Sequence record: MN850570.1
Source: Escherichia phage mellemsur
Length of the DNA: 40,770 bases
Reading direction: 5' to 3' (one strand)
The notes beneath the pieces are model-generated. The model had not been told where the DNA came from. It saw only the letters and a list, made by a program, of their open reading frames with translations, and did not search any database. The translations under genes were made by a program, and so were the position numbers. This document shows positions 666 through 40,770 of the stretch, in pieces (position 1 is the first letter of the stretch; the number at the start of each line of letters is the position of its first letter).

Positions 666-896
666 TCACTCGACCAGCTCGAAGCCATCGCCAAGCTGGG
701 TTACAACGGTGTCGCCTGCATCGTCATCTACCCACAGCTCGTTGGGCAGGCAGACTTCCAGACCATCCGGGTCAACCTCACCCAGCTCAGGAAGACGTGC
801 TGCATACAGCTCACCGATGGTGCAGTCACGAGCACAGAACTTGCTATGCACTGACTTATGCACGCCAGTGTAGCGAACGGTTACTTCTTTAGCCAT
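666..896 (-). CDS. small acidic early protein (paralog of 900..1145)
   Basis: 76 aa, strongly acidic; shares RD-x-TIG-x-xY-xA-xL-xE-xGE-x-x-PDG and C-terminal (L/I)VE with the adjacent gene. Confidence 0.55.
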   Translation of the reverse strand: MAKEVTVRYTGVHKSVHSKFCARDCTIGELYAARLPELGEVDPDGLEVCLPNELWVDDDAGDTVVTQLGDGFELVE

Positions 897-899
897 GAG

Positions 900-1145
900 T
901 TACTCCACGATTTCAATGGTGTGGCCAACGTGTGCGGCAGTGAATGCGAAGCACTCGTCACCCACATCGTCAACGAAGAAGATACCCTGTTCGTCAGTTG
1001 TGTAGCTGCCGTCAGGAAGTTCTTCACCATCCTCAACCAGCAGTGCGTCATACTCTTTGCCGATGGTGGTGTCACGTACTGCGCCAGAGAAATGCTCAGG
1101 CAGGGAAGTGTGACCGATGATGCGAATCAGAATTGAACGTGCCAT
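900..1145 (-). CDS. small acidic early protein (paralog of 666..896)
   Basis: Start moved to ATG (MARSIL...) with GAGGA Shine-Dalgarno; about 81 aa, strongly acidic; motif shared with neighbour. Confidence 0.55.
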   Translation of the reverse strand: MARSILIRIIGHTSLPEHFSGAVRDTTIGKEYDALLVEDGEELPDGSYTTDEQGIFFVDDVGDECFAFTAAHVGHTIEIVE

Positions 1146-1487: not shown

Positions 1488-1772
1488 TTAGACCTCGAAG
1501 CTACCAATCGCTTCGTAGCCCTTGGCAGGCATGTTCACAGCCGCGCCCTCATTCAAGGTGCCGCCGTTCAGCAGGAACGCCAGCTCACCCATGCGGCTGA
1601 TGTCAGATTCCAGCGACGGCAGCGCAGCCTTCGCATCTTCAACCGTGTTCAGTTCCGGTACGTCTTTGCAGCCGGAGATACACAGCGCCATGTTGCCTTC
1701 TTCGAAGCCATCGCCCACGATTGCAACGATATCTTTTTCAGAAGCGGAGTAGTAAGCAGTTACTTTAGCCAT
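1488..1772 (-). CDS. hypothetical early protein (start at MAKVTAYY)
   Basis: Internal ATG with GAGGG Shine-Dalgarno; track N-terminal extension uses rare codons (agg, ata, cta). Confidence 0.5.
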   Translation of the reverse strand: MAKVTAYYSASEKDIVAIVGDGFEEGNMALCISGCKDVPELNTVEDAKAALPSLESDISRMGELAFLLNGGTLNEGAAVNMPAKGYEAIGSFEV

Positions 1773-1840
1773 GATAAAACCCTCAGTTAGTTGTGGCATG
1801 ATTGCCCTACAGCCCACCGCTATGAATGGCCTGTCAGTAA

Positions 1841-2371
1841 TCACGCAGCTTGTTTAGCCTTGCGCAGCAGGTCGAGCACGTTCTGAGGCACTACGACCTT
1901 GTTCGCGTCTTCGTCCTTGCCTTCGTGACGCAGCTCATTGGCCTTGTTCAGCGCCTTCTCAGCTTTGGCAATCAGCTTTTCGAGCGCATCTTGCAGGTCG
2001 AAGCCTTCGAACGCCTGCTCAGGCTTCATGCTCCACCACATAGTGGCTTTGGCCGTGTCAATGTTCGCCTTGATATACTCAGCGCCTTGCCAGCCGATGA
2101 AGCCCTGTTTACCGCCGTTCTCACCGATAACCAGACCGCCGAACTTGACGAACCAGTCTACCAGCGCCTTGCCACGAACGCCCTGACCGAGCTGATTCAC
2201 GAAGGATTCAGCGCGAGTGTAGTCGCCGTGATGATAAGCGTGCAGGATGATGCCGACCGCAACGTTCTGAATCTCGTTACGGAGTGAGTGCGCCTTCTTG
2301 ACGGTAGACTCAATAGCCTTGTCCAGAGCGGCAGCGTCTTTGAAGCTGGTGTATTTGATTGCAGTAGTCAT
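1841..2371 (-). CDS. hypothetical early protein (start at MTTAIKY)
   Basis: AAGGGG Shine-Dalgarno about 7 nt upstream of internal ATG; about 176 aa. Confidence 0.5.
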   Translation of the reverse strand: MTTAIKYTSFKDAAALDKAIESTVKKAHSLRNEIQNVAVGIILHAYHHGDYTRAESFVNQLGQGVRGKALVDWFVKFGGLVIGENGGKQGFIGWQGAEYIKANIDTAKATMWWSMKPEQAFEGFDLQDALEKLIAKAEKALNKANELRHEGKDEDANKVVVPQNVLDLLRKAKQAA

Positions 2372-2519
2372 GATGTTACCCCTTGTCAGGTTGGTTGATT
2401 TCACATAGCGCCTCGCAAGACGCTATAGGCTATCAGCCACGGCGACGGCTCAGTCGCTGGTCAATGACCCAGCAGGCCGCCGCTATAACACACAGTGCAG
2501 TGAACATAGTCATGCCCCC

Positions 2520-2909
2520 TTACTCCACTACCCAAAACAGTTCACCGTCATAAGTCCAAGCGGTATGCTGCCCGGCTTCCATCTGCTCGCCTGTTTTGCT
2601 GACCAGCTTGCCAGCAGGCTTGCCCGGATACGGTGAATCCATGAAGATTGCATCATCATCTTTGGTCACTACCATGATGCAGTCCTGTTCAAGAGCTTTA
2701 CAGAACAGCTTAACAGCCTGCCTGATTTCGTAGATTCCATCGACAGGAAATACCATGCTCAACTCATACTGATTGTCGAACTTGCCTGTCAGCGTGACCG
2801 GAATCACTCCGAACATATCCTGCACCGTTCGCAGTGCCTTGCAATGAAGCGCCAGATTAACACATTCAGCGTTATTCGGACGATATGCGCTTGCATAGAT
2901 ACGGTACAT
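2520..2909 (-). CDS. hypothetical protein, first gene downstream of early promoter cluster
   Basis: 129-aa ORF with GGAG Shine-Dalgarno; preceded by about 400-nt leader. Confidence 0.5.
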   Translation of the reverse strand: MYRIYASAYRPNNAECVNLALHCKALRTVQDMFGVIPVTLTGKFDNQYELSMVFPVDGIYEIRQAVKLFCKALEQDCIMVVTKDDDAIFMDSPYPGKPAGKLVSKTGEQMEAGQHTAWTYDGELFWVVE

Positions 2910-3341
2910 AGTTATTTCTCCAGTTGTTGGCTATTTTCAGGTGGATAGTGAACCCATTGTGACGCGCCGTACAGTCTGCACTCGTTGGCATTGATTGGCT
3001 TGTCGGATTCACTACCCTGAAAAATCGCCCCGCCCATTTCGCGCCGTGGATATTGTCTGCATCCACTCTCAGGAGTCCTCCAGCAGTCCGGCTCACCGTT
3101 TCCAGCTTGCCTACCTACCCGCTTCACTCCGCGCCTTATAAGACGTTCGGGATTGTGCTGATACTGCGCTGCGTCTATCGCGCTTCTCCGTTCCCATCGC
3201 ACCGGGCGCTACCCCTATTGCCTTTCGGCGGTGCCCTCACCAGTTCCTAGCTGCGCCGGATACCCATGAGGCCGAGACACTACGTGGCCTGTTTACGTTC
3301 ACTCAGAGCAGGTTGTTTTGCAACCTTTCAACTCGGTGCTG

Positions 3342-3370
3342 ATTACATCACATCGTATTCAGCGTGTCAA
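3342..3370 (-). promoter_or_regulatory. sigma70-like early promoter (TTGACA-N17-TGTAAT on minus strand)
   Basis: plus-strand attaca at 3342-3347 and tgtcaa at 3365-3370 with 17-nt spacer. Confidence 0.45.
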
Positions 3371-3421
3371 CTACTTTTTACTTCTGACTGACTGGCTTGC
3401 TGCCCTGTCAATCTGGAGCGT

Positions 3422-3450
3422 ATTACAGCATACTCGTTTCATCCTGTCAA
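3422..3450 (-). promoter_or_regulatory. sigma70-like early promoter (TTGACA-N17-TGTAAT on minus strand)
   Basis: plus-strand attaca 3422-3427 and tgtcaa 3445-3450, 17-nt spacer. Confidence 0.45.
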
Positions 3451-3558
3451 CCGTTTTATTCAGCGCCCGTTCTGAGATGAATAATCCGTACCAGTTTGCC
3501 TGCGTGTGTTTTAACGTCTTTATCAATGACTGTTTGGCTTGCTGGCTGACGTGGAAGC

Positions 3559-3587
3559 ATTACAGCATAGTGAGCTTGCCTTGTCAA
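3559..3587 (-). promoter_or_regulatory. sigma70-like early promoter (TTGACA-N17-TGTAAT on minus strand)
   Basis: plus-strand attaca 3559-3564 and tgtcaa 3582-3587, 17-nt spacer. Confidence 0.45.
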
Positions 3588-3661
3588 TACACTCCAGATT
3601 GTTAAAGAGCAGTGCTACCGTTCAATCTTGTCTACTGGGCTAGTGCCTTTCGACGTGATGA

Positions 3662-3691
3662 ATTACAGCACATAACCAAAACAGTTTGCAA
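3662..3691 (-). promoter_or_regulatory. sigma70-like early promoter (TTGCAA-N18-TGTAAT on minus strand)
   Basis: plus-strand attaca 3662-3667 and ttgcaa 3686-3691, 18-nt spacer. Confidence 0.4.
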
Positions 3692-3712
3692 GTATTATTT
3701 TCAAGAAAAGTG

Positions 3713-3731
3713 ATAAGTTACTGTAATCATT
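3713..3731. repeat. direct repeat copy 1 (ataagttactgtaatcatt) in AT-rich spacer
   Basis: 19/19 identity with 3792-3810; flanks also similar (gagatta / agataatta). Confidence 0.6.
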
Positions 3732-3791
3732 GAGATTAAAGTTTGATTGGATAATCACAACACTGGATAGAATACCGTTATCAGATAGGTC

Positions 3792-3810
3792 ATAAGTTAC
3801 TGTAATCATT
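3792..3810. repeat. direct repeat copy 2 (ataagttactgtaatcatt)
   Basis: identical to 3713-3731, about 79 bp apart. Confidence 0.6.
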
Positions 3811-3818
3811 AGATAATT

Positions 3819-3850
3819 ATGAAAGTGTCTATAGTGATATAGTATCGCTA
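3819..3850 (-). promoter_or_regulatory. conserved element copy B (minus strand reads tagcgatactatatcactatagacactttcat)
   Basis: 21-nt core tatcactatagacactttcat identical to 25712-25732 (there on plus strand); contains CACTATAGA, the core shared with T7/SP6-type promoters. Confidence 0.4.
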
Positions 3851-4320
3851 GATACGCAGAGCGAGCGCGGCGCAGCCGAAACAAGCGAGCGCCGAACGGA
3901 TGACGGATGGCAGACCGTAGGACTGACAGACGGCAGACAGTGAAGGCAGTAGGACAGTAACAGCAGGTAGCAGAGCATGACGCGCAGAGCTGGCAGGCGC
4001 AGACAGTAGACCGGCACACCACACAGCAGGACGGCAGCACCACGCCGCACACCGCTACACACCAGCACCACACAGCACCACGAAAAGAGACAGATACCCG
4101 CACGACCGAGCGCAGCACGCAGCACCGCACAGCCAGCGCAGAGCGTCCCCATAGGACAGCACCGCACAGCACAGCCAGCAGGACAGCGCACAGCACGTCA
4201 CACGGCAGACGATGAAACGCGACACGCACGAGCTATACCGCACGCAGGCAATCCTCTTGACGCGCCGCGCAGCGCACGCGAGCAAATATCGCGCACGTCG
4301 CGAGGCTAATCCGCGCACAC
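3851..4320. repeat. T-depleted (plus strand) degenerate short-repeat tract, presumed genome terminus / terminal-repeat region
   Basis: Manual count roughly 29 T in about 470 nt; recurring CAGCAC/CACAGCA/GACAGC units; lies between last late gene and early promoters. Confidence 0.65.
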
Positions 4321-4384
4321 GTCATGGGGGTACGCGCGGTCATTTGGGTCGAGGGAGGGCCAAGCATAAACGTGCAATTTTCAA

Positions 4385-4406
4385 GCCGGGGTATTGCACC
4401 CACGGC
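4385..4406 (-). terminator. possible hairpin downstream of endolysin gene
   Basis: imperfect GC stem gccgggg...ccacggc; A/U-rich but not U-run tail; weak. Confidence 0.2.
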
Positions 4407-4435
4407 CTGTTCATTGCCTCAGCTTTTGGATACCC

Positions 4436-4972
4436 CTACAGCGTCGCACAGTAAGCGCTACAGCGTTTTGCACGAGCAACCAAGGCATCCCTATAGCGAA
4501 CCACTGTCGGGGCTGTAGAAGCCTTTAGGAACGCAATACGAAGGTCACAGATGGCTGCTGCTGCGGAGTGAGGTTCCAGACGTTTGGCTGCTGCCACGGT
4601 AGCAGGGCCAATAACCCCGTCTTGTGCAACGCCGCATACCCGCTGTAGAGCTTTCGCCGCACGGGAGACACCGGAGTTGACACCGTAGTCAAACACGGCA
4701 CATGCAATCGCAGGGTGAAGCTCGTCACCTCGGATGGGGGCGTAGTAATCCCGTCGATAGATTGCTTCGGCTTGTGCTTTGGTGAGGTCTTTGATAGGCA
4801 CGCAAATAGTACCGCCAAGCCCAGTAGGGACACCACAAGCTCGGCCATCCAGTTTGCCATCACGAGCGTCGCTAATTCCATGATTCGTTTCCCCTCCGGT
4901 ATCGCCGGGCAGCTTGGTGTAACCACCTTCTGCCAGCCCGGTGAACCGCATACAGATTTCAAAGTTAGTCAT
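4436..4972 (-). CDS. endolysin, GH108-type N-acetylmuramidase with C-terminal peptidoglycan-binding-like domain
   Basis: N-terminal EGGY...D-x-GG-x-T-x-x-GI motif typical of GH108; no signal/SAR sequence; ATGA overlap with upstream gene. Confidence 0.75.
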   Translation of the reverse strand: MTNFEICMRFTGLAEGGYTKLPGDTGGETNHGISDARDGKLDGRACGVPTGLGGTICVPIKDLTKAQAEAIYRRDYYAPIRGDELHPAIACAVFDYGVNSGVSRAAKALQRVCGVAQDGVIGPATVAAAKRLEPHSAAAAICDLRIAFLKASTAPTVVRYRDALVARAKRCSAYCATL

Positions 4973-5355
4973 TACATCCCCAGTAGTGTAGTGATGAAGG
5001 CTTGCAGTGAGCTTAAGTCACCAGCCTTGATTGCTAAGTAGATACCGCTACACAGGGATGCAGTTAAGAGACACCATTTGACAGCGTGAGCCGCCGCCGT
5101 AAACAACTTACCGATATGGCTCATAGTCTTTTGAATGTCCTGAATTTGCTCAACCACAAGGAGCTGCTGTTGAACCGTCTGCCAGCGGAGGTCGTTCTCA
5201 GCCAGCTTGGAAATCATTGCAGCATCGCCCTTTTCAAGAGTGGCGATTTGTACCTCGTGCTTGTCAAGTCGAAGTTCTACGGTCTGCATACGAGCCTCCA
5301 CTGCACCCATACGCGAGTGGATGTTAGGAGATGGCTCCTTCTTTGCTTCCGTCAT
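4972..5355 (-). CDS. lysis-associated membrane protein, putative holin (alternative start at 5289)
   Basis: Coiled-coil-like N-terminus plus single C-terminal TMD (AVKWCLLTASLCSGIYLAI); immediately upstream of endolysin; GGAGG Shine-Dalgarno before internal ATG at 5289. Confidence 0.35.
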   Translation of the reverse strand: MTEAKKEPSPNIHSRMGAVEARMQTVELRLDKHEVQIATLEKGDAAMISKLAENDLRWQTVQQQLLVVEQIQDIQKTMSHIGKLFTAAAHAVKWCLLTASLCSGIYLAIKAGDLSSLQAFITTLLGM

Positions 5356-40641: not shown

Positions 40642-40770
40642 TTGTTATCACCTTTTAAAATGCGCACGGTGAACTCGTCGTCCTCGTACGCCTGCCACTC
40701 ACGTTCAGGGCCATGCCCCAGTTTGGTAACAACCAGTCGGCTGCCGTCATATTCCTCGGCACCGATGCGC
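40638..40770 (-). CDS. hypothetical protein, C-terminal fragment (gene starts beyond window end)
   Basis: minus frame open from window edge (...RIGAEEYDGSRLVVTKLGHGPEREWQAYEDDEFTVRILKGDNK) to TGA overlapping next ATG. Confidence 0.4.
   Translation of the reverse strand, partial: RIGAEEYDGSRLVVTKLGHGPEREWQAYEDDEFTVRILKGDNK

Follow-up and report, generated by a model that had tools for sequence, protein, structure and literature searches.

Two adjacent genes for acidic proteins in a variable early slot of a Bonnellvirus belong to a family of predicted SH3-like barrels

Genes A and B in the early region

The window analysed here is the whole stretch of 40,770 nucleotides from Escherichia phage mellemsur (MN850570.1), with position 1 as its first letter. 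Its first 4 kb match Bonnellvirus phages, Escherichia phage megetsur being the best match (98.9%); Bonnellvirus belongs to the Autographiviridae and is now classed in the Autoscriptoviridae, Stentvirinae. Because position 1 runs directly into position 40770 in an alignment with an IMG/VR contig, the window represents a complete, circularly permuted Bonnellvirus genome, presented as its reverse strand. The first early gene (2520-2909) encodes a SAM lyase (Pfam S-AdoMet_lyase, E = 3.8e-25), and downstream of the early genes lie those for a DnaB-like helicase, a family A DNA polymerase, a T7-type RNA polymerase, a portal protein, a terminase and an endolysin. Since the RNA polymerase comes after the replication genes, the gene order is phiKMV-like. 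The 'T7-like' early setting proposed in an earlier note on this DNA is therefore apt in one respect, in that the genes belong to the early region of an Autographiviridae phage related to T7, next to a SAM lyase, but the term is loose with respect to gene order. The two genes of interest, A and B, come fifth and sixth after the SAM lyase gene, and it is from this position in the genome that we infer their early expression.

The features of the locus, all on the minus strand, are as follows.

457-609: downstream flank, a 50-aa Gly/Tyr/His/Ala-rich ORF, beyond which lies a 94-aa gene (170-454)
635-660: G+C-rich 11-bp hairpin just past the stop codon of A, at the 3' boundary of the slot described below; no U-tract
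666-896: gene A, 76 aa, net charge -10, pI 4.33; phrog_23195 subfamily
900-1145: gene B, 81 aa, net charge -13, pI 4.28; phrog_17459 subfamily
903-906: Shine-Dalgarno sequence GGAG of gene A, 6 nt before its ATG and within the last codons of B
1150-1485: upstream flank, a 111-aa acidic protein (net charge -9) with no PHROG or Pfam match
1154-1158: Shine-Dalgarno sequence GAGGA of gene B, 8 nt before its ATG at 1145 and within the 3' end of the 111-aa gene

For gene B, a start at 1193 (giving a 97-aa ORF) was rejected because of its overlap with the end of the preceding gene; the ATG at 1145 is preferred, and the protein begins with MARSIL in all orthologues and in the GenBank annotation (megetsur_9, 246 bp). 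The stop codon of B (TAA, 902-900), a CTC triplet and the ATG of A follow one another in a single frame, leaving a gap of 3 nt, and this close spacing suggests translational coupling of the two genes. A read-through fusion of B and A across 897-902 was considered and dropped, because the frame relation is not kept in phage aldrigsur, where neighbouring family genes are separated by 2 nt or share 1 nt; for the same reason, the shared frame is probably a coincidence.

Both proteins are strongly acidic, with 16 D+E against 6 K+R in A and 17 against 4 in B, which agrees exactly with the net charges of -10 and -13 counted by hand in the earlier note and amounts to -0.13 to -0.16 per residue. Their pI values fall inside the range of DNA mimics (~3.8-5.5). 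However, a low pI does not discriminate DNA mimics here, because unrelated neighbours are equally acidic: the five neighbouring proteins of at least 94 aa, the 176-aa protein excluded, carry net charges of -5 to -9. Thus, acidity characterizes both proteins, as had been noted, but it is hardly their hallmark, given these neighbours, the early proteins of aldrigsur (-8 to -17) and the existence of near-neutral family members. Across the early region, nearly all small proteins are strongly acidic (net -5 to -13 at 170-2909 on the minus strand, and net -8 to -17 in aldrigsur, 1670-5246 of locus L001), the slightly basic exceptions being the 176-aa protein (phrog_1448) and the 50-aa ORF.

Homology, wider family and predicted fold

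A and B align over their full length in BLASTP with 29 identities in 82 positions (35%; composition-adjusted E = 3e-10). Their Smith-Waterman score is 90 (z = 14.7), where 5000 shuffles of B gave 24.4 +/- 4.4 and never exceeded 53, and A and B reach scores of just 20-36 against three other acidic neighbours; the high score within the pair and the low scores outside it indicate homology rather than shared composition. The pairwise alignment thus bears out the relationship that the earlier note had drawn from a shared motif and a common C terminus. Both elements are indeed present in the two adjacent genes: the 24-residue motif RD-x-TIG-xx-Y-x-A-x-L-x-E-x-GE-xx-PDG reads RDCTIGELYAARLPELGEVDPDG in A and RDTTIGKEYDALLVEDGEELPDG in B, and each protein carries LVE/IVE at its C terminus.

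Considering that A and B are short and compositionally biased, one could attribute their similarity to acidic composition alone, or deny that the two ORFs are genes at all. We discarded both ideas as having practically no chance of being correct. The shuffles, the neighbour scores and the composition-adjusted E-value speak against a compositional artefact, while the ribosome-binding sites, the homologues in distant phage groups and the selection on the coding sequences, with dN/dS of 0.1-0.3 at saturated dS, speak against non-coding ORFs. More precisely, the dN/dS values of A, B and a third slot gene, C, are 0.11-0.32, which implies purifying selection, and at the whole-gene level (dN/dS < 1) there is no sign of diversifying selection.

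The earlier note had described a duplicated pair. The two are true paralogues, but a local or recent duplication does not fit the identities: A is 47.5% identical to its counterpart in the Drulisvirus Kp2 (E = 6e-21) and only 35% identical to B, and B is ~40% identical both to gp183 of phage phi92 and to the slot subtype D. Because A is nearer to the Drulisvirus proteins than to B, a recent tandem duplication is not supported; judged from their sequences, A and B represent two old subfamilies set side by side, probably through cassette exchange.

Both genes have relatives well beyond Bonnellvirus, in a family that is widespread among phages and specific to them. At E < 1e-3, an exhaustive HMM search of 1.84 billion representative proteins returned 109 clusters (50% identity), so that the family comprises at least that number. 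Its members are nearly all single-domain proteins of 70-85 aa. In PHROGs, A matches phrog_23195 (8.8e-16) and weakly also phrog_17459, and B matches phrog_17459 (4.3e-9), so that both proteins are direct members of these entries by sequence; both entries are labelled as unknown function. When 92 family members were compared with PHROGs, 50 of the 92 matched phrog_17459 and 33 phrog_23195 (83 matching either), and phrog_34652 and pVOG VOG7380 are further database entries of the family. Deposited members include megetsur_9 and megetsur_10, aldrigsur_33-35, Phi92_gp183 and Kp2 ALJ98102. The megetsur counterparts of A and B are 97-99% identical to them. By tblastn, A-like genes occur in Drulisvirus-type phages of Klebsiella and Enterobacter (42-58% identity) and B-like genes in phi92-like myoviruses (Phi92_gp183, ~40%), all annotated as hypothetical. 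In Kp2, as in two Autographiviridae-like contigs from metagenomes, homologues occupy the same kind of early site.

The family consensus reads M-x-K-x-V-K-x-K ... [RK]D-x-T-V-G-K-x-Y-x-A ... GE-x-D-xx-G ... F-x-DDVGD-x-V ... E-x-V, with T27, G29, Y32, G40, D59, D60 and G62 conserved in at least 90% of members. Several acidic positions are conserved as well (D25 in 89%, E41 in 82%, D59 and D60 in 97-98%, D63 in 89%). The median net charge is -7, with 80% of members at -5 or below, and the median pI is 4.5; nearly neutral members are subtype C (-1 to -3), the Kp2 homologue (-3) and phi92 gp183 (-4). Two family domains share one chain in the metagenomic proteins P0016 (143 aa), P0018 (155 aa), P0022 (174 aa) and P0056 (170 aa). 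In P0057 and P0105, a single family domain precedes a repeat of unrelated sequence (DWNTV.W..IPEDVEAV...) that is present twice.

Annotation offers little further guidance. Pfam gave nothing significant for A, B, the unassigned genes of their neighbourhood, the 92 relatives or 10 longer relatives; PADLOC returned noise for A and B (AbiEi at 0.044 for A); a sequence profile search of the PDB at E <= 10 gave only spurious RCC1 matches; and word-indexed searches of 5.8 billion proteins found no relative that was named or Pfam-annotated. No homologue with an annotated or tested function emerged from the PHROG, tblastn, protein and BFVD searches, and we found no functional data in the literature on Bonnellvirus and Drulisvirus early genes. 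The family is thus already known in PHROGs and pVOGs, where it stands without a function, its genes deposited as hypothetical proteins. What is new is that the families split between database entries form, on the basis of their sequences, a single predicted SH3-like superfamily with four subtypes in Bonnellviruses; also new are the accessory slot with its 0-3 copies, the recombination signature and the analogy to CarS, all discussed below.

AlphaFold2 with the family alignment produced models with a pLDDT of 96.2 and pTM of 0.83 for A, and 85.1 and 0.74 for B. Both are predicted to be small SH3-like barrels built from five antiparallel strands, whose loops include RT-like, n-Src-like and distal ones. 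Strands 1 and 2 are joined by a long loop that contains a short helix, strands 2 and 3 by a long acidic loop holding GE-x-D-xx-G, and strands 3 and 4 by the tight DD-x-GD hairpin. In SH3 domains, the positions of the RT-like and n-Src-like loops form the ligand face. The matches found in BFVD with Foldseek were uncharacterized phage proteins only. Because SH3/Tudor-like barrels rank with the most frequent phage-specific folds (bioRxiv 10.1101/2025.05.14.653371), the fold itself tells little about function.

The earlier note had suggested Ocr-type proteins, with the two copies aimed at two host systems and structure prediction as a check. Ocr has a helical fold and forms an elongated dimer that imitates bent B-DNA. 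Like Ocr (T7 gp0.3), ArdA and Arn, A and B are small, very acidic, early phage proteins, and like Ocr they are encoded near the first gene of the genome, here the SAM lyase gene. Unlike the helical Ocr, A and B are predicted to be all-beta; they have no sequence match to these proteins and are not members of the Ocr family: in a search for the Ocr family by sequence, Pfam gave no match for A, B or the 92 relatives and the PDB profiles gave the spurious RCC1 matches only. Neither Ocr, ArdA nor any other anti-restriction mimic was among the structural matches listed for the two models, and instead of a helical fold the confident models show all-beta, SH3-like barrels. We therefore abandoned the Ocr-type assignment. 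The functional proposal behind it, namely that A and B are Ocr-type DNA mimics blocking restriction-modification or BREX, with two copies for two systems, draws on the pI of 4.3, the charge density, the early position beside an anti-restriction gene and the precedent of an acidic SH3-fold DNA mimic, CarS (PMC2926617); we regard it as quite improbable.

CarS/CarS1, an antirepressor of Myxococcus xanthus (PDB 2kss), mimics operator DNA by means of an SH3 topology. It shares with A and B, as modelled, a highly acidic five-stranded SH3-like barrel, but there is no sequence homology. We take CarS to be the closest working analogue of A and B, the resemblance being structural and not evidence of membership. 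A looser, generic likeness at the level of the fold exists to Gp54 of phage Bas11 (PDB 9axb), a small beta-barrel that triggers CapRelSJ46; it differs in being six-stranded, in lacking sequence similarity to A and B and in coming from another phage group.

The accessory slot and possible roles of its proteins

In a scan of 15 related early regions with the family HMM, we found that A and B occupy a slot between the conserved 111-aa gene on one side and the conserved 50-aa and 94-aa genes on the other. This slot holds 0-3 family members of four subtypes (A-D), together with unrelated cargo (X, Y and Z), namely two proteins of 88 aa and 81 aa, plus one of 104 aa that carries a signal peptide (Z). 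A search for related loci by alignment found one IMG/VR locus. The following arrangements were observed.

This window and megetsur: B-A
aldrigsur: B-C-A
altidsur: C-B
LF82-23 and one IMG/VR contig: C-X-B
HHU8: C-D-Y
BHUENT7: B as the sole family member
smaasur, J8-65 and Lidtsur: family absent

The arrangement Z-D-Y also occurs among the slot contents. Subtype C has a 17-residue insertion and almost zero net charge, and subtype D is 83 aa long. The 104-aa protein, with its signal-peptide-like N terminus (MKVSKGYLFVLLMLATLYLS...), is found in forsur, glasur, Lidtsur and others, as well as at 1572-1886 of locus L008 and 955-1269 of locus L015, and may be a secreted or membrane-bound exclusion factor, as far as its sequence suggests.

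These arrangements bear on the possibility that A and B act as one unit, a two-barrel heterodimer. Their adjacency, the probable coupling of their translation and the common frame across TAA-CTC would suit such a unit, as would the natural two-domain chains described above. However, altidsur, LF82-23, BHUENT7 and the IMG/VR contig carry B but not A, subtype D is the only family member in five phages, and Drulisvirus and phi92 have a single copy each. Since B, D and other members so often occur singly, the identity of a partner is not conserved, and an obligate pair appears unlikely.

The flanks are stable while the content of the slot changes. The 111-aa protein retains 93-99% amino acid identity among the closer Bonnellviruses and 56-68% among the distant ones, and the 50-aa ORF (MSGSTYNAHANQISYAGYCALGG...HYMHHEYYLIRG), for which megetsur, LF82-23, HHU8 and others have a CDS annotation and which has no PADLOC match, is 84-100% identical across Bonnellviruses. 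By contrast, B orthologues drop to 59-90% identity where the flank proteins of closer relatives stay at 93-99%, and in the closest comparison, that of the window and LF82-23, dS is 0.83 in B versus 0.097 and 0.079 in the flanks, a difference of ~8-10-fold. Because dS in the slot is so far above that of the flanks, the divergence is better explained by old alleles swapped through recombination than by rapid evolution in place. In PADLOC, residues 20-102 of the 111-aa neighbour weakly match a TIR effector model (E = 0.005), a result that is probably noise.

At the 3' boundary of the slot, the hairpin at 635-660 is predicted to fold with -27.9 kcal/mol (z = -3.2), and none of 200 shuffles was as stable. 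It lies within a conserved block that is 98.8% identical in a relative without gene A. This hairpin could serve in RNA processing or stability, or mark a boundary of recombination.

Thus, comparison of these sequences points to an accessory region maintained by cassette exchange, with conserved flanks and a content that varies among close relatives. A published study depicts phage accessory regions as sites where variable genes, often with anti-defence roles, cluster (bioRxiv 10.1101/2023.04.06.535777), and the behaviour of the slot agrees with that description. The family motifs are absent from the screened accessory genes in the supplements of Silas et al. (bioRxiv 10.1101/2023.04.06.535777). 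Moreover, the family is dispensable in J8-65, smaasur and Lidtsur, since these Bonnellviruses, grown on E. coli K-12, lack it. Taken jointly, the identity of A and B, their homology, the predicted fold and the accessory-slot behaviour are, in our judgement, very likely correct.

What the proteins do can be addressed with much less confidence. Their small size, their lack of a catalytic signature and their conserved acidic loops, which lie at the RT-like and n-Src-like sites, suggest binders of a basic surface, and so do their dispensability, their copy-number variation and the nearby SAM lyase. Since the slot behaves like a phage accessory region, a role in host takeover or anti-defence is a reasonable guess. 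We propose that A and B are early, translationally coupled genes for diverged SH3-like barrel proteins in an accessory slot, and that each protein would be a stoichiometric binder produced early in infection. Its conserved acidic loop face would dock on a basic surface of a host protein and block that protein, in the way that CarS, the acidic SH3-fold antirepressor, sequesters a DNA-recognition helix. Candidate targets would be a defence protein or a nucleic-acid-binding protein, and the subtypes might differ in their targets or allele specificities. By analogy, that A and B inhibit a host or defence protein is a tentative reading, to which we give somewhat less than an even chance; against it stand the commonness of the fold, the absence of the family from three Bonnellviruses grown on K-12, dN/dS values that show no diversifying selection over whole genes, the acidity shared with unrelated early neighbours, and the weakness of this acidity in subtype C, the Kp2 homologue and phi92 gp183. 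That they do so specifically as DNA mimics, as the comparison with CarS could suggest, seems improbable.

An alternative explanation is that the proteins, instead of countering defence, serve the phage's own early programme, as small adaptors or regulators whose targets would be host RNA polymerase, the nucleoid or phage replication proteins, or as binders of divalent cations through their conserved D/E loops. Yet core functions seldom vary between 0 and 3 copies among phages that are 80-99% identical in nucleotide sequence over the region, and the unrelated cargo of the slot (the 88-aa and 81-aa proteins and the 104-aa protein with its signal peptide) is typical of accessory genes; we consider this explanation rather unlikely, albeit worth keeping in mind.

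Extending the inhibitor reading to the whole family, subtypes A-D could form a previously unrecognized modular family of acidic SH3-fold decoys, widespread in phages of Enterobacteriaceae (Bonnellvirus, Drulisvirus, phi92-like and rV5-like). Each subtype would neutralize its own target, a defence protein or a DNA-binding protein of the host, by posing as nucleic acid or as a basic-surface ligand, and the cassettes would be swapped to fit the defences of the host. Such a scenario is speculative and, as we see it, unlikely.

At present, this is another uncharacterized family of small early proteins and would not surprise a phage specialist. If its members do inhibit host proteins, they would constitute a new and easily recognized class of counter-defence or takeover factors, with the signature RD-x-T-x-G-xx-Y-x-A ... 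DD-x-GD. The family spans phages of E. coli, Klebsiella, Enterobacter and their relatives, some of them used in therapy, and the near-identical Bonnellviruses with 0, 1, 2 or 3 members offer a natural series for finding the targets.

Other features of the early region

Between the endolysin and SAM lyase genes lie ~1.5 kb (2910-4435) with no convincing genes, corresponding to the region of the genome ends and the early promoters. A consensus scan of its minus strand detected no strong sigma-70 site. This region contains a 28-nt direct repeat at 3704 and 3783, along with several C/A-rich repeats, and a Cys-rich 188-aa ORF (3663-4229) that appears spurious.

Compared with megetsur and the IMG/VR relative, the window lacks ~1.67 kb with four or five small acidic early genes; in megetsur, the segment holds five, megetsur_2 to megetsur_6. 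The junction lies as follows.

1811-1848: putative deletion junction, with the 176-aa gene (1841-2371) on one side and a 94-aa gene (1488-1772) on the other

In the relative, the segment missing from the window is bounded at both ends by CTGCGTGATTnCTG followed by a hairpin, and the window has a hybrid copy of this element, which suggests, from the sequences compared, that the 1.67 kb were lost via recombination between repeated intergenic elements.
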